From contig CAVZPM010000038.1 of NCBI GenBank assembly GCA_963777155.1, positions 35,615-99,614 of the forward strand: a stretch of 64,000 nucleotides of DNA. Reading direction: 5' to 3'. This DNA is from Candidatus Bathyarchaeota archaeon (GTDB lineage Archaea; Thermoproteota; Bathyarchaeia; Bathyarchaeales; Bathycorpusculaceae). Below the pieces are notes generated by a model. That model saw only the letters and a program-made list of their open reading frames with translations. It was not told the DNA's origin and searched no databases. The translations under genes were made by a program, and so were the position numbers. The stretch's first letter is position 1; the number at the start of each line of letters is the position of its first letter. Shown in pieces: positions 1,982-62,268 of the stretch.

Positions 1982-2104
1982 AGTCCGCTTAATTCTTGAA
2001 ACTATCTGTTAAAATCAGTTGTCTCCCTGGCCATCAATGAGTCGGCGGGGCAACTTCAGGGTTAATTTATTAACGCATTGGAATTGCAGATTTGCTTGGA
2101 AGAA

Positions 2105-2725
2105 TTAAGGAGAGGGAGCGTAGTATGAAATGGGTGTGGCTTGAAACCAAGCATCAGGGTTCTGGAACTTTACAAATGGCACATTGCTTTCCTGTTTCTT
2201 TTCAGCAGTTAATTGATTAATTGTTTGAAGTATCTCAATGTGACGTTCTTCATCTGTAATAATTTTTAAGAATATCTTTTTTATTTTAGTTAAATCAACA
2301 GAATATTTCTCATTTATAAAAGCTGTCATCCTTTCAAGCGTCTGCATTTGTATCAGCATGTAGTATTCTTCGCCCATCTGACTTTCCAAGGTAATTAGAA
2401 TTTCACTTATTTTCGGCAAATTCTCTGAGGAGACTTTCTCTATCTTTGCGAGGTCTTTAATGAAATTAGTTATAGTTTTCAGCGTCGGGTTGTTTTTTTG
2501 GCATTCTTTTAGTTTACACTTCGGTTACCTGAAGCTGTTACTTACTCCACTAAGCATAATGGAATGTTTTTGGCTATCTAACTCAATTTCTTTTAAGAGT
2601 GTTTTTACTAGAGGAATATCAACTTTATCACATAAAGCTCCGTATAGTAAACTAGTCTGGTTCTCTAGGATACTCTGGCAATTTAGGTATTCCGAAATCT
2701 TGTCTGCTTCATTGTTACTCATCAA
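2105..2725 (-). pseudogene. Ferritin/rubrerythrin-like diiron protein interrupted by one in-frame TAA at 2525-2527
   Basis: ORFs 2525..2725 and 2105..2419 are in the same frame, joined by 35 open codons (PKCKLKECQKNNPTLKTITNFIKDLAKIEKVSSEN). Ferritin-like motifs E..(D/E)xxH occur in both halves (ELDSQKH, DEERH). Confidence 0.65.
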
Positions 2726-2815
2726 TAACTGCTTCCTGAATGTTTAGACCTTTTTTTCCATATATTGTTTATGAACTCTCAATAAGTAAGTTACGACATT
2801 TTCATCTACTCAAGA

Positions 2816-2836
2816 CTGACAGAACTATTCTGTCAG
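2816..2836. promoter_or_regulatory. Perfect 9-3-9 inverted repeat CTGACAGAA-CTA-TTCTGTCAG, putative operator
   Basis: Read directly. Lies in the divergent intergenic region between the ferritin-like and FAH genes. Confidence 0.5.
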
Positions 2837-2992
2837 ACGAGATTTTATTTTCCACGAGTTTTTACAGCAAAGAAGAACAGGCAACAAGTTGATCTTTTAA
2901 CGCACCCTTGCACGCCCTGGCTTTTAATAGAAAAGGGCAAATACAAAGCATCCCTAGATTAATCGAGTAATTAATGCTACATAGACGCGTCG

Positions 2993-3889
2993 GTGATAGG
3001 TGAAAAGATGAAAATAGTTAAGTATCAATACAAAGGCAAAGAAAACTATGGCATCATACAGTCTGAGAAGCTTATGTGTCTTACTGATTTAGCCAAAAAC
3101 TATGAAATCGATTTGCCTAACACAATTGAAGATTTTATCAAAAGTCCAACAGCTGAGAAAAATGCAGACAGAATACTTGCGGAAACGACAAGCAGTGAAC
3201 TCGATGCATTTTCTATACCTACAAGTAAGACAAAACTTCTGACGCCAATAATTTCTCCACCCAAAATACTCTGTTTAGGTCTAAACTATGCTAGTCATGT
3301 GAATGAAACAAAAGAAAAAAGACCTGAGCAGCCAGTTGTTTTCATGAAACCAAATACAACTGTAATTGGACCCAATGACAAAATAATCAAACGCCCTTTT
3401 GTGGAACAACTCGACTATGAAGCTGAACTTGCAATAGTCATAGGCAAGCAAGCTAAAGATATCGCCATTTCGGAGGCGCCTAACTATGTTTTTGGCTACA
3501 CTATACTAAACGATGTTTCAGCTCGGGATTTCCAGTTTAAAGGGAGCCAATGGACCCCTGGTAAAAGCTTCGATACTTTTGCACCTATCGGTCCTTGCAT
3601 AACCACAAGAAAGCAAGTGCCCAACATTAACAACCTTGCAATCAAGACATGGGTAAATGGAGAATTGCGCCAAGACGGTAACACGCGGGATATGATTTTT
3701 AGCGTTAGCGAAATAATCTACCATTTAAGCCGAATCATGACGTTAAAACCATGCGACATAATCGCAACAGGTACCCCATCTGGTGTAGGAATGGCTATGC
3801 GACCGCAAAAATGGCTAAACAGCAACGACAAAGTTAAGATAGAAATTGAAGGTATAGGTATTTTAGATAACACCGTTGAAGAGAAATAG
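2993..3889 (+). CDS. Fumarylacetoacetate hydrolase (FAH) family protein
   Basis: KILCLGLNYASH, FMKP, LDYEAEL, GYTILNDVSARD, GKSFDTFAPIGP and IATGTPSGVG motifs. Confidence 0.93.
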   Translation: MIGEKMKIVKYQYKGKENYGIIQSEKLMCLTDLAKNYEIDLPNTIEDFIKSPTAEKNADRILAETTSSELDAFSIPTSKTKLLTPIISPPKILCLGLNYASHVNETKEKRPEQPVVFMKPNTTVIGPNDKIIKRPFVEQLDYEAELAIVIGKQAKDIAISEAPNYVFGYTILNDVSARDFQFKGSQWTPGKSFDTFAPIGPCITTRKQVPNINNLAIKTWVNGELRQDGNTRDMIFSVSEIIYHLSRIMTLKPCDIIATGTPSGVGMAMRPQKWLNSNDKVKIEIEGIGILDNTVEEK

Positions 3890-4033
3890 GCTTACTTGTC
3901 GGATAGTTCTGGGATCTGCTGAGTCAACAAAGAACAGTTTACAGAAATACTCTGCTGATAATTAACCAGTTTAACTGATACGGTTAGGTTATTAAGGGAG
4001 AAATCGCTTAGTTTAAATCCAGGTGATTTTCTT

Positions 4034-4363
4034 TTGGTTTTAGCAAGAATGAGTAAATGGACTTTTAAAAAAGATAAACGGAAAGAAGCTTTCTTAGAGC
4101 TAGACCATTTGTTAAATACTTTAGTCCATCAAACTGAGGGATTTCGAGGCTCCATGGCGATGCTTTCTCAAGATTTGAACTCTGCAACAATCTTAACTCT
4201 ATGGGTAGACATAGAGGCATTAAACAGATCAGAAAAAGACGTATTCAAGCAAGCCATCAAAAAAGTCCAAGATCTACTTGAGTGCCCTCCACAAATTGAT
4301 AACTTCATGATTTTCCGAACAGAGCTCTTTCAAAGTTCACAATGGCCTACTCACTGGGGTTAA
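4034..4363 (+). CDS. Small dimeric alpha/beta-barrel (ABM, antibiotic biosynthesis monooxygenase-like) protein
   Basis: About 100 aa with the ABM-like pattern (W.FK..KR.EA ... EGFRGS ... TLW.D.EAL). Confidence 0.55.
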   Translation: MVLARMSKWTFKKDKRKEAFLELDHLLNTLVHQTEGFRGSMAMLSQDLNSATILTLWVDIEALNRSEKDVFKQAIKKVQDLLECPPQIDNFMIFRTELFQSSQWPTHWG

Positions 4364-4577
4364 TTAGCACAGAACATTTCGACATAGCACCGTTTAGATA
4401 CAGTCAGCAACAAAGTCGCAGATAGTCTGCTAAACCAAGAGCCTTTCATTCAACTCTCCACACCTGCTTCCGATTATTCTTAAAATTCAATCGATAATTA
4501 GAATTGATTTGAAAAACAAGACGAATTGTTGTTCTAAAAGAGCTAAAAAGAAGAATGGGATTGTTTTGATTTTAGCC

Positions 4578-4757
4578 TTATGGGTGTTTCCTGAGGAGTA
4601 ACACTGTCGCCACGGCAACTGCTAGAATGATTGCGATTGCCGCGATTGCTGTGTAGGTCATCAAGTCTGTTGTAGTTGCTATATTTGATATTGGAGTGGC
4701 TGTTGGCGCTGGAGTAACTGATTCGCTGACGTGGAAGGATGTTTCAGCAGCTTTTTT
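4578..4757 (-). pseudogene. Orphan 3' fragment of a PQQ-like surface-protein gene (stalk, TM helix, RKHP tail)
   Basis: Manual translation AAETSFHVSESVTPAPTATPISNIATTTDLMTYTAIAAIAIILAVAVATVLLLRKHP*, which matches the C-termini of 22480.. (KKRP*) and 54856.. (RKHP*). An in-frame TGA lies immediately upstream and there is no start codon before the stalk. Confidence 0.75.
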
Positions 4758-4844
4758 TCAAGGACAAAATTTGTGAAATAAACTTAAAACAAATGGATTG
4801 AATAACTAAGAAAATGAAGTAGGGATTTTTATTTGAAATTTTTG

Positions 4845-5110
4845 TAAGCGCTTCTGGATCATAATTACTAATTTAACACTGGCAATTGCTATTCAAAAAT
4901 TTTTGCCAATACCTTATGTGAAATACACTTCAGTTGGTGGAAGCACAGTTAATGGATATGGTGAATCTGTTGGATCTACTGGGTTATAACAAAGGATGCT
5001 TCAGCGGGTGATAGCCAATATGATTTGCTAACGCTAAATATCGCATATACCAAGTATATCTGTTGTTATTGATAGCTGTAGTGTCAATTTGCACGGTTGT
5101 TGCAGTATCA
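4845..5110 (-). pseudogene. Heavily eroded second 3' fragment of the same surface-protein family
   Basis: Across frames and stops it reads TATT.AN.HYSYQ.., YLVYAIFSVSKSYWLSPAEASFVIT, PTDSPYPLTVLPPTEVYF and IAIASVKLVIMIQKR. This aligns with GTATTDALG..YKVFATFAGSDSYWQSSSETAFNV..ADLYF..TM..RKHP of the 54856 ORF. Confidence 0.6.
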
Positions 5111-7973: not shown

Positions 7974-8815
7974 TGTTAAATCTGCTTTTACCCAACCCTG
8001 CAGCTATAGCAAAATCAGATAAAACCAAGACTCTTCTTATCGCTGATCCGCATTTGGGCTGGGAAATGCAGCTTCAAGAAAAAGGCATCCATGTACCGAG
8101 TCAAACATCCAAAATACTCAACAAGTTAACTGCAATTATATGCAAGTACAAACCCGATAGGCTGGTTATTCTTGGCGACGTAAAATACACGGTGGTTTCG
8201 CATGAGTTTGGTGAGTGGCAAGATATTCCAGATTTTTTTAGAAAACTTCAAGATATTATTGGCAATATAGCTATCGTGCGGGGTAATCATGACGCAAATT
8301 TAGAACCGTTGCTGCCAGAGAGTATTGAGCTTCTGCCTGCGACGGGGGAAGTAATCGGGGACGTTGGGGTTTTTCACGGCCACAAATGGCCTTCGCCAGC
8401 GCTTTTAGGGTGCAAAACATTGGTTATGGGACATCTTCACCCTGTGGTTGTTTTTCATGACCCAGCAGGTTTTAAGATGACAAGGCAAGTGTGGATGAAG
8501 ACTAAGGTTGATAGCGAAGGTTTAGCCAAGATTTTACTTAAGAAGGCTGGCGTAAAAATAGAGAATTCAGTAACTGAAACCCTGAGGAAACATTACAGTG
8601 TCAAACTCAAAGCTTCTGAACTCTACATAATGCCTAGTTTCAATGATTTTCTAGGTGGTAGACCCGTAAACGAAACAAGACCGCGGAAAGATATCGGTAG
8701 TGAAAAGTTGATTGGGCCTGTTTTGCGTTCGGAGGCGGTGGATGTTGATGATGCCGAGCTTTACCTTTTAGACGGCACTTTTCTTGGATCTTTAAATCAG
8801 CTTCGGCAATTGTGA
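7973..8815 (+). CDS. Calcineurin-like metallophosphoesterase (ICC-like)
   Basis: ADPHLG, LGDVK, RGNHD, FHGH and GHLHP metal-binding motifs. Translationally coupled to the IMPase (TGATG). Confidence 0.88.
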   Translation: MLNLLLPNPAAIAKSDKTKTLLIADPHLGWEMQLQEKGIHVPSQTSKILNKLTAIICKYKPDRLVILGDVKYTVVSHEFGEWQDIPDFFRKLQDIIGNIAIVRGNHDANLEPLLPESIELLPATGEVIGDVGVFHGHKWPSPALLGCKTLVMGHLHPVVVFHDPAGFKMTRQVWMKTKVDSEGLAKILLKKAGVKIENSVTETLRKHYSVKLKASELYIMPSFNDFLGGRPVNETRPRKDIGSEKLIGPVLRSEAVDVDDAELYLLDGTFLGSLNQLRQL

Positions 8816-55762: not shown

Positions 55763-57934
55763 CTATGCAACTGGGGTTGCTGGCTTTTGTACTTGTCGGA
55801 TTTGCTGCATGAAGCTCTTGTACCACTTTTCCATGTCAGGTGTAATCGATGGACCCATCTCTTTGAGGGCATCCTGGAAATCCTTCATCGTGACTTCTGT
55901 AGAGTTAACGTTCTTTCGGAGTGCATGCATCGCAGCTTCGCGGCACAGCGATTCTATGTCAGCGCCAGAATAGTATTTAGTTGCAATTGTTATCTGGTTT
56001 AAGTCCACATCTTTGGCAATTGGCATACCCTTCGTGTAGATTTTGAGGATTTGCAAACGGCTCTTCTCATCAGGCTCAGGCACATAGATTAAACGGTCAA
56101 AACGTCCGGGACGCAACACAGCCGAATCAACCATGTCAGGACGGTTAGTAGCAGCGATAACTACGATGTCTTGCAACGTCGTAATACCATCCATCTCCGT
56201 TAATAGTTGGCTTATGACACGTTCGGAAACACCGCTATCAGACATACCCATCCCACGTCTGGGAGTAAGAGAGTCGATTTCGTCGAGGAATACAATTGCA
56301 GGCGCTGCCATGCGGGCTTTGCGGAAGACTTCGCGGATGGCTTTTTCTGATTCGCCGACCCATTTGCTGAACACTTCAGGTCCTTTGATGGATATGAAGT
56401 TGGCTTCGCTCTCTGTTGCCACTGCGCGTGCTAGCAGGGTTTTCCCGCAGCCCGGTGGGCCATAGAGTAAGATGCCTTTGGGTGGTCTGATTCCAAGTTT
56501 GGTGAATATTTCCGGGGTCTTGATTGGCCATTCTACGGCTTCGATTAGGTGCTGTTTTACGTCGTCGAGTCCGCCTGCATCATCCCAGTGGACAGTTGAG
56601 ACTTCAATGTAGACTTCACGCATAGCTGTGGGTGTGACTTCTTTGTATGCCCCCAAGAAATCGTCCATTTTAACTTCCATTTTCTCCAATACAGCGGGCG
56701 GGATACGTTCTTCTTCAAGGTTAATCTGTGGCAAATAGCGTCTTAGTGCTTTCATGGCGGTTTCTCTGCCTAAAGAAGATAAGTCGGCTCCTGTGTAGCC
56801 GTGTGTCATGGCTGAGAGTTTCGGAAGGTCAACATCTGTTGCCAGCGGCATACCTCGAGTGTGGATTTGGAGAACTTCATAGCGTCCTTTCTTGTCAGGG
56901 ACACCGATTTCTATTTCCCGGTCAAACCTGCCTGGTCGACGCAGTGCTGGATCAAGGGCGCCAGGGCGGTTGGTCGCTCCGATGACGATGACGTTTCCTC
57001 TACCTGACAAACCATCCATGAGAGCTAGGAGCTGGGCAACCACGCGTCTTTCCACTTCACCTGTGACTTCTTCACGTTTAGGAGCTATGGCGTCAAGTTC
57101 ATCAACAAAGATTATGCTCGGAGCATTCTGTTGGGCCTGCTGGAAAATTTCTCGGAGCCTAGCTTCTGATTCGCCATAGAATTTGCTCATGATTTCTGGT
57201 CCATTGATGCTGTAGAAGTTAGCTTCTGACTCGTTTGCGACTGCACGAGCGAGCAGGGTTTTGCCGCAGCCTGGTGGACCATGTAGCAGCACACCTTTTG
57301 GCGGTTCAATTCCTAAACGTTGGAAAAGCTCTGGGTGACGAAGGGGCAACTCGACCATTTCACGGACACGTTGGATTTCCGTGTGAAGTCCACCGATGTC
57401 TTCATAGTTTGTTCTGGGCAAACCTTTGCCTTCGGGTGCTGGCTCGTTTAGGATTGTGAGTTTTGTTTCAGCAGTAACTTTAATGATACCGTGCGGACGC
57501 GTTTTTGAGACTGTGAAAGGTATAGCATGTCCTAGCATCATAACCAGTGTAGTGTCGCCTTCGACTAAGGTACGTTCCATTAGCCGATTTTTAACGAAAT
57601 TGGTGAAGTCCTCATCCACGTTAAGACGCATATCTACAGGCGCGAGAGTTATGGAAAGGGCGGTTTTGACTTTTGCAGGTCTAATAACCACGTACTCGTT
57701 TATTGCGACTCCAGAGTTTTTACGTGTGAACCCGTCGATACGAATTATGTCGCGGTTCTGGTCTTCACTATACGCGGGCCAAGCAATAGCGGATGTGGTA
57801 CGTTTATTCACGATTTCAATTACGTCTCCAGCACTAATGCCTAGTTTCTGCATTGTTCGCTGATCAATTCTGGCGATTCCTCTACCCACATCTCGTTGTC
57901 TTGCATCTCCAACACGTAGTTGTATTTCGCTCAT
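55763..57934 (-). CDS. cdc48: CDC48/VCP (VAT) AAA+ ATPase
   Basis: N-domain plus two AAA modules (GPPGCGKT twice, DELD/DEID, RPGRFDR twice). Confidence 0.97.
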
Positions 57935-58072: not shown

Positions 58073-58351
58073 TTAGTCGCGGCTTGTTCTGCGTATCTGG
58101 AATGTTTGAGCTTGGCTTACACCAGGGATTTTTGCGAGTTTCTCTTCGAATTCATCAACTAGACCTGATTTATCTTCAGGATATCTAATTTGAACTAAGA
58201 GTGCTACGAGCCCAAAAGCAACTGGTTCTTCGCCGTATCCTTCAATTGCGGCGAATTCAGGCAGGATTGCCTTGATTTGGGTTTTGAGGCCATCAAAACT
58301 TGGCATGATGTCTTCTGGGAAAACCTTATAGGTTACAAGTACACTACCCAT
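58073..58351 (-). CDS. ef1b: Elongation factor 1-beta
   Basis: YKVFPED, EEPVAFGLVAL and GVSQAQ pattern, downstream of the DUF1610 gene as is canonical. Confidence 0.9.
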   Translation of the reverse strand: MGSVLVTYKVFPEDIMPSFDGLKTQIKAILPEFAAIEGYGEEPVAFGLVALLVQIRYPEDKSGLVDEFEEKLAKIPGVSQAQTFQIRRTSRD

Positions 58352-58363
58352 GCGGTTCGCCTT

Positions 58364-58543
58364 TTAAGGTCCACTAAAGCCGCATTTGGGACATCTGTAG
58401 AGGCGACCGAATTTGCGGCATTTTCCGTCTCGTTTAACCTGGATTTCTCCGCATTGTGGGCACAGGAACTTTGTGGATTCGCTGCCTGGCGGGATTGGTT
58501 TTCCGCAACTTGTACATGTGACTAGGGACAACTTTTCCGACAT
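58364..58543 (-). CDS. DUF1610 / HVO_2753-like zinc-finger protein, 59 aa (not in ORF track)
   Basis: Manual translation MSEKLSLVTCTSCGKPIPPGSESTKFLCPQCGEIQVKRDGKCRKFGRLYRCPKCGFSGP. Confidence 0.9.
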   Translation of the reverse strand: MSEKLSLVTCTSCGKPIPPGSESTKFLCPQCGEIQVKRDGKCRKFGRLYRCPKCGFSGP

Positions 58544-58810: not shown

Positions 58811-58850
58811 ATTGCGCACCGCAATGCCTATAAGTAAATATTCTAATATT
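58811..58850. promoter_or_regulatory. Two adjacent inverted repeats (ATTGCG-CAC-CGCAAT and AATATT-CT-AATATT) around a TATA-like tract upstream of the 58991 gene
   Basis: Read directly at 58811-58825 and 58837-58850. Confidence 0.45.
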
Positions 58851-58877
58851 ATAATATATGCTTTGAAGTTGTAAGTT

Positions 58878-58945
58878 GAAACAACAGAAAACAGCCATTC
58901 AAATGCCGTATAAAACGTTTCAAAAACTGTTTCACAACCGTTTCA
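58878..58945. repeat. Three phased GTTTCA direct repeats plus one inverted TGAAAC
   Basis: GTTTCA at 58917, 58929 and 58940 (spacing 12 and 11), and TGAAAC at 58878. Confidence 0.45.
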
Positions 58946-58990
58946 ACCAACTCCTATACCACTCCAAAGCCATAGTAATAATATCAAAAA

Positions 58991-59821
58991 ATGGAGGAAC
59001 AAAAAATGAAAATTTGGAAAATATTAACAGTCTCGATTGCCGCTTTCGCGGTAGTCGCAGCCCTCTTAGCTTCAACAGTCTATGCCATGGGTCCATTTGG
59101 TGTTAACGCCTACGGTGGATACGGTGGCATGATGGGCGGGCGCGGAATGATGGGAGGCGGATACGGGTATGGTTACCCAACCCAAACCACACCAAACGGC
59201 CAATACTACCAACCCGTTTACCCGTCTATGTTCGGAGGCATGATGGGCGGATTCGGCCACGGCTTTGGTGGAATGATGAGAAGCTACGGATATTCAGCGC
59301 CATATGCTTACACTGGAACGCCGCTGACAATAACTCAAGTCCAAACCATCGCTCAGAACTATGTCGCTTCAACCGGTAATCCGGACCTAGTGGTAAAACA
59401 GATCGAAGAATACTCAGCCAACTTCTATATCCAAGTTAACGAGAAAAGCACCGGCAACGGAGCCTTCGAACTCTTAATCAACAAATATACCGGTAGCATT
59501 TACCCAGAGATGGGACCCAACATGATGTGGAACACCAAGTACGGCATGATGCGAAGCGGTGCTCTTGGCGGAATCTACGGAACCCCAACAACAACCCTGC
59601 CAGTCAATTTAGCCCAAGCAACAACTGACGCACAGCAGTACCTAACAAGCTACGTGCCTGGAACAACAACAGGAGACGTCACAACCTTCTACGGGTATTA
59701 TACCATAGAAGTCCTCAACGGAACAACCACATATGGCATGCTAAGCGTCAATGGTTACACAGGACAAGTTTGGTACCACACTTGGCACGGAACCTTCAAG
59801 CAAGAACTACAAGTTAGTTAA
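58991..59821 (+). CDS. Exported Gly/Met/Tyr-rich protein with two PepSY-like domains
   Basis: Signal peptide, GMMGG repeats, then the duplicated module (AQ.Y..G..E/TF..NF/YY..V/I..G..FE/GML.IN/VN.YTG.I/V.). Confidence 0.75.
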   Translation: MEEQKMKIWKILTVSIAAFAVVAALLASTVYAMGPFGVNAYGGYGGMMGGRGMMGGGYGYGYPTQTTPNGQYYQPVYPSMFGGMMGGFGHGFGGMMRSYGYSAPYAYTGTPLTITQVQTIAQNYVASTGNPDLVVKQIEEYSANFYIQVNEKSTGNGAFELLINKYTGSIYPEMGPNMMWNTKYGMMRSGALGGIYGTPTTTLPVNLAQATTDAQQYLTSYVPGTTTGDVTTFYGYYTIEVLNGTTTYGMLSVNGYTGQVWYHTWHGTFKQELQVS

Positions 59822-59892
59822 TTGGTTCCACTAACCTTCAGTTTTTCTTTAGTTTTTTGTCTTAATGTAAAGCATAAATGGGTGAGAGAATG

Positions 59893-59906
59893 TTAGAATA
59901 TTCGAA
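59893..59906. promoter_or_regulatory. Imperfect palindrome TTAGAATATTCGAA, putative ArsR operator
   Basis: Perfect GAATATTC core 14-27 nt upstream of the likely arsR start. Shares AATATTCTAA (opposite strand) with 58837-58846. Confidence 0.5.
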
Positions 59907-59919
59907 TAAGAGGCAAAAT

Positions 59920-60270
59920 ATGTCTAATCCAGAATTCGATCTAACCATATACCAGCTGCAGGCGGAAATTTCCAAAACCTTAGCCCACCCCCTGCGACTG
60001 GCGATCCTGCATAACCTAAAAGGCGGAGAAAAAACAGTCAACCAACTAACCCAAACCATCGGCGCAAGCCAATCCAACATATCCCAGCACCTAGCGATTC
60101 TACGGCAACGACAAATCGTCAAAACACGAAAAGATGGAACAAACATCTACTATCGCGTGGCAAGCCCCAAAATCAGCCAAGCCTGCGATATGGTGCGCGA
60201 AGTGCTCATAGAGCAACTTAACCAAAAACATGAATTAGCAAAAAACTATGCACAGGGAGTTGAGTTTTAG
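59920..60270 (+). CDS. ArsR/SmtB-family transcriptional repressor
   Basis: KTLAHPLRLAIL..GEKTVNQL..SQSNISQHLAILR..RKDG.NIYYR pattern with a single alpha5 Cys (QACD). Likely start is ATG 59920. Confidence 0.92.
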   Translation: MSNPEFDLTIYQLQAEISKTLAHPLRLAILHNLKGGEKTVNQLTQTIGASQSNISQHLAILRQRQIVKTRKDGTNIYYRVASPKISQACDMVREVLIEQLNQKHELAKNYAQGVEF

Positions 60271-60426
60271 ATGTGTGGTTGTGGATGCGGCTGTGGTTCG
60301 GATTCCAGCTACGAACGAACAGAAACAGCTCCAGAAGTTGAGATGAATCCCTGCAAGTACTGTGGGGCACTCTTCCAACAAACCGCTACGTTTTGCCCAA
60401 ATTGCGGAGCCAAACGAACAGTATAA
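60271..60426 (+). CDS. Cys-rich 51-aa peptide with an N-terminal CGCGCGC and a zinc ribbon (not in ORF track)
   Basis: Manual translation MCGCGCGCGSDSSYERTETAPEVEMNPCKYCGALFQQTATFCPNCGAKRTV. The ATG abuts the arsR TAG and is preceded by GGGAGT. Confidence 0.8.
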   Translation: MCGCGCGCGSDSSYERTETAPEVEMNPCKYCGALFQQTATFCPNCGAKRTV

Positions 60427-60526
60427 CACAAATTAGAAAACCCTAAAGACCACTTAGATTCAAAATTGAAGGAGATTCTTAAAAATACCCAATCTTAAAA
60501 TTTTCTTAACAATCATTCTTTCAGTA

Positions 60527-61192
60527 TTGTTTTTAGCAGTTTTAGTTTTTCCAGTTTTCGCAGTAACATATAGTGCTGGAGTAATGTCAGGTCAATATGT
60601 TAAATACGGCAATTTCGCCGAATTTGGCCCGGGATTTGAAGGGTTAGGCGACCAAGACTCGCTTACCCTACAAGTTACGAATGTTGCTGGAAGCCAGGTG
60701 ACGCTGCTTTCAACGGGACAATTCAAGAACGGTTCCGCTGTTCCTGGTAACGGCACAGTTACTGTTTGGGATGTTGCAACTGGAACAGAAAATGGGGCAC
60801 TAAGCACTCAAGGTCCCATAATTGCCGCCAACCTCAATGCGGGCAACCCGATTCCACCCTCAGATACTTACACCGTAAACAGCACAGAAAGCCGCCAGTA
60901 CCTGGGTACCACCAGAAATGTCAATATCCTCAGCATCACAATATCTACGCCGGACTACAATTCAAGCTTAACTTACATTTACGATAAAACCTCAGGAATG
61001 CTGCTTGAATCCTCCTCTCAGACGACCGCGCAAGGCGAATCTGGACCAGTCACATCCGAATATTCATACAGCATCACTCAAACAAACATTTTTGCACCAG
61101 CCCCATCCATACCTGAAACAACATTCACAGTTGCCGCGATAACAGCAGTTATTGTCATCGTTGTATTGGTGTTACTAAGGAAAAGAATCTAG
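60527..61192 (+). CDS. Hypothetical secreted beta-rich protein with a C-terminal IPE-TM-basic anchor
   Basis: Signal-like N-terminus, AGVMSGQYVKY and YIYDKTSGMLLE motifs (cf. 9973..10662), and a PSIPET-TM-RKRI C-terminus. Confidence 0.75.
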   Translation: MFLAVLVFPVFAVTYSAGVMSGQYVKYGNFAEFGPGFEGLGDQDSLTLQVTNVAGSQVTLLSTGQFKNGSAVPGNGTVTVWDVATGTENGALSTQGPIIAANLNAGNPIPPSDTYTVNSTESRQYLGTTRNVNILSITISTPDYNSSLTYIYDKTSGMLLESSSQTTAQGESGPVTSEYSYSITQTNIFAPAPSIPETTFTVAAITAVIVIVVLVLLRKRI

Positions 61193-61239
61193 CAAACCTC
61201 TTAAGATTGTTCCATGCCTATCATTTTTGTGGAATCGTT

Positions 61240-62268
61240 TTGGGCGTAAACTTCAAAGACCTCATACCAAAAACACCCGTGAAACTTGAAGATTTAGGCG
61301 GCAAAATCATAGCCATAGACGCATACAACGCCATCTACCAGTTCCTCAGCATAATTCGCCAACCCGACGGCACGCCTCTAAAAGACAGCACTGGCAGAAT
61401 CACCAGCCACCTAAGTGGGCTCTTTTACCGCACAAGCAACCTAATCGAAATGGGCATCAAACCCATCTATGTCTTTGATGGCGAATCCCCAACTTTGAAA
61501 GCCGCTGAAATTGAGCGTCGCAGACAAGTAAAAGTTGCAGCAACAATCCACTATGAGAAAGCCGCGGCAAAGGGCGATACAGAAAAAATGTTCACATACG
61601 CTCAAGCATCGACTAGTATGAAAGATTACATGTTGGGTGACAGCCAAAAACTCTTGGAACTCATGGGTTTGCCGTGGGTTCAAGCGCCGAGCGAGGGTGA
61701 AGCTCAAGCAGCATACATGAACAAAAAAGGTGACGCAGACTACTGCGCGAGCCAAGACTACGATAGCCTCCTTTTTGGAGCATGTAAACTGCTTAGGAAC
61801 GTGACTATTTCTGGGAGAAGGAGGAGAGGAAGAGTCATGATTGAGGTTGTGCCTGAAGTTGTTGAATTGCCTAAGACGCTTCATGAATGTGGTTTAACCC
61901 GTGAGCAGTTGATCGATGTTGGTATCTTGATTGGCACTGACTTTAACCCTGATGGTGTAAAAGGGATTGGACCAAAAACCGCTTTAAAACTCATAAAACA
62001 ATACGGCACTTTGAAGAATGCAGTGCCGCATTTGGAAAATGTAACTTTCGTTGATAAAATAGAAGAAATACAGCAGATTTTCTTGCACCCAAAAGTAACC
62101 GACAACTACAAGATAGAATGGAAAGAACCCGATGAGAACGGTTTAATTGATTTCATGTGCCGCGAAAAAGAGTTCGGAGAGGAACGAATCAAAAAAGCCA
62201 TAGAAAGGATGACTGCTGGAAGTAAGAAACAGAAGGGGAAAGTTTCGCTGGAAAAATGGTTCAGCTAA
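61240..62268 (+). CDS. fen: Flap endonuclease 1
   Basis: IAIDAYNAIYQFL..IRQPDGTPL, VFDG, SEGEAQAA, SQDYDSLLFG, GTDFNPDGVKGIGPK and a C-terminal PIP box (SLEKWF). Likely start is TTG 61240. Confidence 0.96.
   Translation: MGVNFKDLIPKTPVKLEDLGGKIIAIDAYNAIYQFLSIIRQPDGTPLKDSTGRITSHLSGLFYRTSNLIEMGIKPIYVFDGESPTLKAAEIERRRQVKVAATIHYEKAAAKGDTEKMFTYAQASTSMKDYMLGDSQKLLELMGLPWVQAPSEGEAQAAYMNKKGDADYCASQDYDSLLFGACKLLRNVTISGRRRRGRVMIEVVPEVVELPKTLHECGLTREQLIDVGILIGTDFNPDGVKGIGPKTALKLIKQYGTLKNAVPHLENVTFVDKIEEIQQIFLHPKVTDNYKIEWKEPDENGLIDFMCREKEFGEERIKKAIERMTAGSKKQKGKVSLEKWFS

Follow-up and report, generated by a model that had tools for sequence, protein, structure and literature searches.

A conserved Bathyarchaeia gene cassette combining an ArsR-family regulator, a Cys-rich microprotein and exported proteins: a candidate soft-metal response module

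What might an archaeal locus respond to when its ArsR-family regulator is followed immediately by a very small Cys-rich protein and preceded by an exported protein rich in Met? Bathyarchaeia are among the most abundant archaea of anoxic soils, peat and sediments and, to our knowledge, almost nothing has been learned about regulation in this group. We analysed such a locus in a 64-kb stretch of contig CAVZPM010000038.1 from Candidatus Bathyarchaeota archaeon (hereafter the window), where four plus-strand genes share 58.8–61.2 kb between archaeal housekeeping genes. In order, they encode a PepSY-like exported protein of 271 amino acids (59006–59821), ArsR of 116 amino acids (59920–60270), a 51-amino-acid microprotein (60271–60426) and a second exported, beta-rich protein (60484 or 60527 to 61192). 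We conclude, with middling confidence, that the locus represents one instance of a response module for soft metals, most likely copper, which is specific to Bathyarchaeia, occurs in multiple copies and is organised in two transcription units. The observations behind this conclusion are the reality of the small gene, the co-conservation of the cassette, the conservation and position of an operator-like element, the class of fold predicted for the exported protein and the copper genes that neighbour its relatives; we infer that this ArsR binds the operator, that copper is the inducer, and that the microprotein binds metal and contacts ArsR. The locus supplies a defined candidate pair of transcription factor and operator, a microprotein under selection and a testable link to copper.

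The cassette recurs as a unit. Searching the fetched loci by tblastn with the four window proteins, we found the order PepSY-like gene, arsR, microprotein gene, exported-protein gene in about 50 Bathyarchaeia loci, and several metagenome-assembled genomes (MAGs) hold two or three cassettes, placed on separate contigs or at distinct sites. The window's EF-1beta, zinc-finger and FEN1 flanks accompany only some cassettes, which means that inherited synteny alone does not account for the linkage. On JGI metagenome contigs, arsR and the microprotein gene come next after PepSY-like relatives of at least about 60% identity, in most cases with the fourth gene behind them, where the sequence suffices; relatives at 40–55% identity lack the ArsR–microprotein pair behind them. 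Because the pair also occurs alone, without the two exported proteins, in locus L053, and distant PepSY-like genes occur without it, the pair forms the tight core and the PepSY-like family extends beyond the cassette. The original prediction, made from the sequence alone, had named an exported protein, arsR and the microprotein as a module; all the features it named are in place, and the co-conservation of the three holds across about 50 loci in different flanks, but a fourth conserved gene lay beyond the coordinates it covered. It also knew of no described archaeal system of this composition, and our full-text literature searches likewise found no description of the cassette. Some cassette-bearing records are filed under unrelated taxa, namely L041 (Sulfotelmatobacter), L022 (Nanoarchaeia), P0002 (Binatia), P0164 (Chloroflexi) and P0242 (Acidoferrales); these labels are probably binning errors.

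The microprotein, proposed from a small open reading frame (ORF), proved to be a genuine, selected gene. In the window, its ATG at 60271 directly abuts the arsR stop codon (TAG, 60268–60270) in the same frame, and the product, MCGCGCGCGSDSSYERTETAPEVEMNPCKYCGALFQQTATFCPNCGAKRTV, carries eight Cys at positions 2, 4, 6, 8, 28, 31, 42 and 45. A search of 5.8 billion proteins returned 16 close homologues of 50–59 amino acids, a pattern scan across the species representatives of GTDB turned up 80 loci, and the full-length matches come nearly all from Bathyarchaeota/Bathyarchaeia MAGs of peat, bog, palsa and soil. The ORF could be defined in 48 loci, on which all counts of starts and spacings rest: it starts with ATG in 44, TTG in three and GTG in one, and begins 0–18 nt past the arsR stop in 45. 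Since about two thirds of the loci have it in a frame other than that of arsR, stop-codon read-through and an ArsR–microprotein fusion were ruled out. Across the ribbon codons, the proportion of synonymous differences (pS) was 0.75 and that of nonsynonymous differences (pN) 0.054, giving a pN/pS of 0.07, and variability was 0.38 at codon position 3 versus 0.03 at position 2, which indicates strong purifying selection, the signature of a translated and constrained protein. One apparent in-frame fusion (P0015, 80 amino acids) was seen in L001 (ERZ25039545 contig_47568, 2000–5000), on a contig rich in frameshifts where CDC48 is split into four calls and both the PepSY-like gene and arsR are broken; this fusion is most likely an assembly or long-read artefact.

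A conserved element in front of both arsR and the PepSY-like gene suggests how the cassette may be controlled. The 10-mer AATATTCTAA occurs at 58837–58846 and its reverse complement TTAGAATATT at 59893–59902, and these are its only two copies in the 64 kb, against 0.26 expected; as two or more copies arose in 4 of 100 shuffles, the pairing within the window is on its own weakly significant. Across 53 loci (487 kb), the exact 10-mer was found 42 times before arsR, at −27/−30 from the start, 27 times before the PepSY-like start, at −130 to −171 with one at −243, and four times at other places. The shared 10-mer in palindromic contexts, put forward from this one sequence, is in this way conserved across relatives in both promoters, as a single ArsR regulon would predict. 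It appears to be the core of an operator-like element of about 20 bp, ATGTTAGAATATTCGAAT / ATATTAGAATATTATAATAT.

Before arsR, this putative operator (ATGTTAGAATATTCGAAT, 59890–59907) is an imperfect palindrome around GAATATTC. In the spacers between the PepSY-like stop and the arsR start of 48 loci, 14 positions of the block are at least 90% conserved and its flanks are variable, and the block lies upstream of a Shine-Dalgarno-like AGG/GAGG and the arsR start codon; in the window, GAGG at 59910–59913 precedes ATG 59920, the likely true start within an enclosing ORF of 59878–60270. We considered whether the block encodes an N-terminal extension of ArsR beginning with a conserved 'MLEYSN' and rejected this reading: third-base wobble is absent, the bases that follow vary in both sequence and length, and in several loci the ATG of the block is replaced by ACG, ACT, ACA, GCA or ATA, so that the block is non-coding. 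Some 11–22 nt further upstream in the 48 loci stands a consensus cttAAaaGg, represented in the window by GCATAAAT (59872–59879, plus strand), which probably serves as the TATA-like box of the arsR promoter. A repressor site between the TATA box and the start is the classical geometry of archaeal repression.

The distal promoter of the PepSY-like gene follows the same plan, with a candidate TATA-like box (CCTATAAG, 58827–58834, plus strand; YYTWTAAG in relatives) and then an operator-like array, AATATT-CT-AATATT-AT-AATATA (58837–58858), which includes the 10-mer. The consensus over 22 loci is ATATTAgAATATtAnaATaT, placed after the YYTWTAAG box and about 130–170 nt before the start. Most relatives have AATATTAGAATATT, of which the window's 14-mer AATATTCTAATATT is the exact reverse complement; the difference amounts to a two-base spacer change between palindromic AATATT hexamers, so orientation is immaterial to a dimeric binder. 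Closer to the gene, an AT-rich box (58972–58985) and a Shine-Dalgarno sequence, GGAGG (58993–58997), are conserved on the plus strand and presumably serve initiation at ATG 59006, the likely start within the ORF 58991–59821. Behind the gene, T-runs at 59842–59858 (plus strand), in T-rich stretches that are kept in the intergenic alignment, are likely to be an archaeal terminator that would split the locus into two transcription units. The overall pattern is that expected of an autoregulated repressor with a second target, which this ArsR probably is. We looked for covariation between the ArsR recognition helix (SQSN[IVL]SQHLA) and operator variants across cassette copies, and since both are invariant no signal was obtainable.

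What the microprotein could contribute can be read from its layout, an N-terminal (C)GCGC(GC) thiol motif, a charged linker closing in hydrophobic residues (REVIREVVMIP) and a C-terminal CxxC...CxxC zinc ribbon. Ribbon residues C28, C31, C42 and C45 are invariant, within the consensus PCKYCGxLFxQTATFCP(N/H)CGA(K/R)R; PF13248 (Zn_ribbon_3) recognises the ribbon at E 3.3e-6, with a marginal score of 26.8 bits against a cut-off of 27, and homologues had been annotated beforehand with PF13248/PF13240. At the N-terminus, a G-C-G-C core with two Cys recurs in nearly all homologues, whereas the CGCGCGC run itself does not: variants include MCGCGCG, MCPCGCGCG, M(C/F/A)PFGFGCGCG and MFGCGCGS, and many homologues bear GCGCGGG, GCGW or GCSW. 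The run in the window thus looks like a local elaboration of a conserved Cys-x-Cys.

These features bear on a reading of the microprotein as the main effector of its regulon, a metallothionein able to sequester multiple Zn, Cd or Cu ions in the manner of SmtB–SmtA, which we regard as highly improbable. The window copy, with eight Cys in 51 residues, the CGCGCGC run, CxxC..CxxC pairs and a place beside an ArsR/SmtB-family repressor, does invite the term metallothionein-like. Four of the Cys, however, belong to an ordinary ribbon, only two others are conserved among the 48 homologues, no metallothionein family model matched in the Pfam and NCBIfam scans, and a gene translationally coupled behind its repressor would be made at repressor-like levels instead of being strongly induced.

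The ribbon is found far beyond the cassette. A profile of the microprotein matched 953 proteins among 1.84 billion cluster representatives, of which just a handful span the full profile; most match through linker and ribbon alone, as the C-terminal module of proteins of 80–230 amino acids. The ribbon therefore appears to be a generic structural module and the CxC tail the part specific to the microprotein. In the loci that we read, the N-terminal parts of such larger proteins look Spo0M/arrestin-like, PH-like or membrane-spanning, and linker and ribbon (KEVIREVVMIPCKYCG..FCPNCGAKR) form the C-terminus of ORFs in L047 (1145–1735), L059 (4476–5078), L054 (4677–5105), L057 (4428–5105), L048 (4515–5111), L055 (4602–5090) and L060 (4854–5114).

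The regulator is a member of the ArsR/SmtB family, scoring above the curated cut-offs of NF033788 (7.8e-25, 86.5 bits against 55) and PF01022 (9.5e-12, 45 bits against 22) and having 25 solved ArsR-family relatives. None of the recognised metal sites was found in it, be it alpha3 CxC/CxxC, alpha3N, alpha5 Asp/His, alpha4C or a C-terminal Cys triad; aligned by hand with SmtB, it has Ser, Lys and Val in place of D104, H106 and H117, and Glu at E120. Its sole Cys, Cys89 counted from the Met at 59920, lies in the motif ISQACD of alpha5 and is invariant in 48 of 48 copies. The description of an ArsR without the SmtB alpha5 site or an alpha3 Cys motif and with one alpha5 Cys was therefore borne out.

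A suggested kinship with thiol- and persulfide-sensing members fared less evenly. The closest solved structures are indeed non-metal or thiol sensors, with Rv0081 as the best match and BigR (2.5e-13), PagR, SqrR-type proteins (3.9e-11) and NolR also among them, and the BigR model NF040642 ranks second among NCBIfam models for this ArsR. BigR and SqrR sense through Cys and not through a canonical metal site, and together with the invariant Cys89 and the anoxic wetland or peat habitat this kinship could point to a thiol/redox or reactive-sulfur switch, in which Cys89 and the CxC would form mixed disulfides or polysulfide bridges that free the repressor, copper would be incidental and the secreted proteins would protect the envelope. 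Such sensors, however, require two conserved Cys per protomer, one in alpha2 and one in C-terminal alpha5, and here the BigR Cys42 position is a conserved His31, Cys89 sits about nine residues away from the Cys108 position, and the BigR model reaches 66 bits against a cut-off of 155. Among the flanking ORFs of the cassettes, moreover, no gene for sulfide:quinone reductase, persulfide dioxygenase, rhodanese or a TauE-type protein is recurrent, whereas copper genes are. We therefore consider a switch of this kind decidedly unlikely.

The PepSY-like protein has a signal peptide (MKIWKILTVSIAAFAVVAALLASTVYA) and a region rich in Gly, Met and Tyr whose Met tracts read GGMMGG / GMMGGG / GGMMGG / GGMM, and its gene is covered by contigs from three metatranscriptomes. 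The Met-rich tracts noted in the original prediction are present and conserved: a GGMMGG tract is kept, and a second alternates between GGMMG and GGGC(H/I/M)G among paralogues. Also invariant among relatives are the motifs PNMMWNTKYGMM and HTWHG, which lie in the folded domains. Met/His/Trp patterns of this kind occur in Cu(I)/Ag(I) proteins, which makes them a lead. The family is large, with more than 5,500 cluster representatives at E ≤0.001 in environmental data; among the best 120 matches, all that bear a name are called hypothetical, apart from one clear mis-annotation, and Pfam domains are absent throughout.

As for the label PepSY, the Pfam model PF03413 scores below threshold (E 0.39, 11.5 bits against a cut-off of 24), rising to 23.2 bits in a distant relative in L148, but the predicted fold agrees with it. 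In the AlphaFold2 model (mean predicted local distance difference test score, pLDDT, 61, and 73–87 in folded parts), a transmembrane or signal helix and disordered residues 25–96 are followed by two units, 109–168 and 202–259, each with a helix on a four-stranded antiparallel sheet, as in PepSY domains. The best PDB fold matches are the C-terminal domain of YpeB (5e-4) and YpmB, both PepSY folds, with low overall TM-scores because a third of the chain is disordered. Gly/Met-rich loops were also seen in other proteins encoded near PepSY-like genes (GGMTGSGMGMMGSGGMGM, GGMGWWMMFGG and GMMDGYGYGMMSGG; L146 4260–5711, L150 2754–3011, L142 2582–2821 and L018 28–450), carried by the extracytoplasmic part of a histidine kinase and by small transmembrane-SHOCT proteins, and may represent a general extracytoplasmic sensing or binding element.

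The link to copper comes from the neighbours of paralogous cassettes and of distant PepSY-like relatives; for the cassette loci, recurrent neighbours emerged from clustering of the flanking ORFs. In 10 of 53 cassette loci, a copper P1B ATPase (TIGR01511, 2.5e-185) is encoded no more than about 5 kb away; it carries a CPH motif and is rich in Met and His at both the N-terminus (MHAGMEHKM...GGSMHMMHTGM) and the C-terminus. Weaker P-type ATPase matches lie near three further loci. By sequence, the linked ATPases form two groups, one sharing about 80% and the other about 42% identity with the reference ATPase. As a genome holds one to few such ATPases, and yet they adjoin about a fifth of the loci and come from more than one sequence group, the association is far above chance. 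An HMA/CopZ-like protein is found near four cassette loci and a DUF7343 regulator with a GGMMG loop near about 11, and a KaiC-like protein with two transmembrane segments around a loop (TM-GGMMGGG-TM) is a recurrent neighbour.

Distant PepSY-like relatives that lack ArsR keep similar company: in L148 one belongs to a string running CopZ(HMA)-CopA(2xHMA)-...-PepSY-like, in L153 one has a P-type ATPase and a PadR-TRASH regulator nearby, ATPases are also close to those in L138, L145 and L150, and in L108, L115 and L116 they adjoin DUF7343 regulators (membrane winged helix-turn-helix proteins with GGMMG loops). These neighbours support the soft-metal side of the inducer proposed earlier, a soft metal or a sulfur species. 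In the second ATPase group (L024, L028 and L007, about 8200–8420, minus strand), the protein begins with LAKDPICGMYVDEK, a Cys-bearing motif that looks YHS/TRASH-like and differs from the Met/His-rich N-terminus of the CPH-motif group.

The fourth cassette protein combines a signal peptide with a beta-rich domain of about 170 amino acids that is conserved and contains neither Cys nor His. Most relatives end in PSVPEF, a transmembrane segment and (K/R)(K/R)(K/R), a PEF-CTERM-like C-terminal anchor signal that in the window copy reads PSIPET-TM-RKRI (general form PSIPE(T/F)-TM-RKR); the NCBIfam scan gave no match to a PEF-CTERM model. The start of the window copy is ambiguous, with ATA at 60484–60486 where relatives bear ATG and a first canonical start, TTG, at 60527. 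Close relatives begin MPNLSTF (P0138) or read ATG CCT AAT (L003), and a start at TTG 60527 would cost the signal peptide its charged N-region; the ATA may reflect mutation of the start codon, use of a non-canonical start or an error in the consensus. The fold of this protein (low-confidence AlphaFold2 model, pLDDT 61, weak LolA/ependymin-like matches) was set aside, and no functional inference was drawn from it.

Several observations weigh against a copper-responsive module. The fourth protein, with few Met as well, is no obvious metal protein; the Gly/Met/Tyr-rich tracts of the PepSY-like protein could be structural low-complexity sequence; the contigs of the three metatranscriptomes cover none of the other cassette genes; the microprotein has only two conserved Cys outside a ribbon and linker that are generic across many unrelated proteins; ArsR has no established metal site, and its nearest solved relatives sense thiols or signals other than metals. 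In addition, the conserved element could be bound by another factor or belong to the core promoter, it was not found at the promoters of the copper ATPases except in one shared divergent region in L040, and no copper gene lies in the 64-kb window itself.

Some of these points fit an alternative that we think rather unlikely, in which the cassette is an envelope module under a non-sensing winged helix-turn-helix protein of the ArsR type, working in the manner of PagR or Rv0081, with the microprotein as a generic zinc-ribbon adaptor, the Gly/Met/Tyr region structural and the surface proteins having no direct part in metal homeostasis. It is in keeping with Rv0081, which has no metal sites, as the best solved match and with the high rank of PagR and NolR, with a fourth protein that combines a lack of metal ligands with a PEF-CTERM-type sorting signal, with the wide reuse of the ribbon module and with the position of the window copy among housekeeping genes. 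It leaves unexplained, however, why copper ATPase, HMA and TRASH neighbours recur across distant relatives, why Met alternates with Cys in the tracts, and why the ArsR Cys is invariant and the CxC conserved.

A soft-metal response module would accommodate these features as follows. An ArsR dimer would bind the AT-rich palindromic operator around the core TTAGAATATT and, sitting between the TATA-like box and the predicted start, block TBP, TFB and RNA polymerase, repressing both its own operon (arsR, microprotein and the surface protein with its PEF-CTERM-like anchor) and the separately transcribed PepSY-like gene. The microprotein, made in step and stoichiometrically with ArsR given the close spacing of the two genes, would present the thiolates of Cys-x-Cys on a flexible N-terminus held by a structural zinc ribbon, and as a thiolate-rich metal-binding partner could supply the thiolates that ArsR, with its one Cys, is without. 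It might act as a chaperone or buffer that hands metal to ArsR, or as a co-sensor that joins Cys89 in one composite site. Loading with a thiophilic metal, Cu(I) being the likeliest, would then free ArsR from DNA and derepress both units, and the PepSY-like protein with its two folded domains would bind Cu(I)/Ag(I) and handle metal outside the cell. If the microprotein is indeed the sensory partner of ArsR, it would represent a new architecture in a well-studied metalloregulator family, and if the Met-rich PepSY-like family binds Cu(I), a widespread extracytoplasmic copper protein would have been named, with relatives beyond Bathyarchaeia beside CopZ and CopA.

In its proposed working, the module most resembles known pairs of a regulator and a small metal protein (SmtB–SmtA, CopY–CopZ, CopR–CopT–CopA) and is a member of none, and its two exported components have no described counterpart. 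The analogy to cyanobacterial SmtB–SmtA in the original prediction holds for an ArsR/SmtB-family repressor beside a small Cys protein and for a palindromic AT-rich operator overlapping the promoter. It fails in that the alpha3N and alpha5 sites are missing from this ArsR, the microprotein combines a single zinc ribbon with a CxC and has no multi-metal thiolate cluster, the regulon adds two exported proteins, and the microprotein gene lies downstream in the same operon, coupled as a partner would be, where SmtA is a divergent, separately induced effector. In the copYZAB operon of Enterococcus hirae, the gene for CopY directly precedes that for CopZ, which delivers Cu(I) to CopY, whose sensory site consists of CxC motifs. 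The order of repressor and small protein, the CxC and the copper ATPases near paralogues are shared with that system, but here the repressor is an ArsR winged helix-turn-helix protein and not of the BlaI/MecI type, the CxC is on the small protein and not on the repressor, a zinc ribbon replaces the HMA ferredoxin fold, and the ATPase lies outside the cassette operon.

Archaeal cop clusters, which act in copper homeostasis, comprise CopR/CopT (a helix-turn-helix with TRASH), a CopT/CopM chaperone and CopA (PMC7830388). An archaeal regulator, a small Cys metal-binding protein (optional in cop) and a P1B ATPase are common to both, whereas here ArsR has no fused TRASH, the microprotein has no TRASH domain, an ATPase adjoins only about a fifth of the cassettes, and Met-rich PepSY-like and PEF-CTERM-like proteins are added. 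In the window, neither ArsR nor the microprotein contains TRASH, and no ATPase is encoded.

The leader of the PepSY-like gene holds a second conserved element, missed when the shared 10-mer was described: a triple direct repeat, GTTTCA-N6-GTTTCA-N5-GTTTCA (58917–58945, plus strand), with units spaced 11–12 bp, unique in the window and conserved in relatives. Of the 83 fetched loci, 43 have it at a fixed distance of about 79–94 nt upstream of the start, and every one of these bears the cassette; behind it come GC(G/C)AACTATC..CACTCCAAG, the AT-rich box and GGAGG. A riboswitch or structured leader was rejected as an explanation of this region: nothing in Rfam matched it and a consensus RNA structure was not found (alifold 0 kcal/mol, z 0.1), so the repeat is a DNA element. 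This arrangement is also found ahead of genes encoding small exported Gly/Tyr/Gln-rich proteins ending in GMCMCGRFW or GYGPCWAR, which diverge from a gene for a DUF7343 winged helix-turn-helix protein with two transmembrane segments around a GGMMG loop. Further triple repeats were seen in L030 (about 2094), L033 (about 1400), L035 (about 1407), L063 (about 2405), L038 (about 9048), L013 (about 3786) and L056 (about 2847). The PepSY-like gene possibly receives a second input here, from a membrane-tethered extracytoplasmic sensor with a second regulon.

A bolder proposal, which we hold to be doubtful, is a split metalloregulator in which the Cys-x-Cys of the microprotein, acting in trans, and the alpha5 Cys of ArsR would jointly form a Cu(I)/soft-metal or polysulfide site, and the DUF7343 protein would act through the GTTTCA repeat as a second branch. 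We know of no two-polypeptide sensor of this kind in the ArsR/SmtB family.

The cassette is bordered upstream by minus-strand genes for CDC48 (55763–57934) and aEF-1beta (58073–58351) and downstream by FEN1 (61207–62268) and then GlmS. Directly upstream of the aEF-1beta gene, a HVO_2753-type four-knuckle zinc-finger microprotein is encoded at 58364–58543 (minus strand; PF07754, 1.5e-16). Both the cassette microprotein and Haloferax HVO_2753 (PF07754) are small archaeal proteins with C(P)xCG zinc-binding knuckles at their core, and this gene, 1.7 kb upstream in the window, encodes a true homologue of HVO_2753; the cassette microprotein belongs to a different family, with one ribbon and a GCGCG tail, tightly linked to arsR and restricted to Bathyarchaeia. 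The pairing of the HVO_2753-type gene with aEF-1beta is kept in the syntenic Bathyarchaeia loci L004–L006 and L016.

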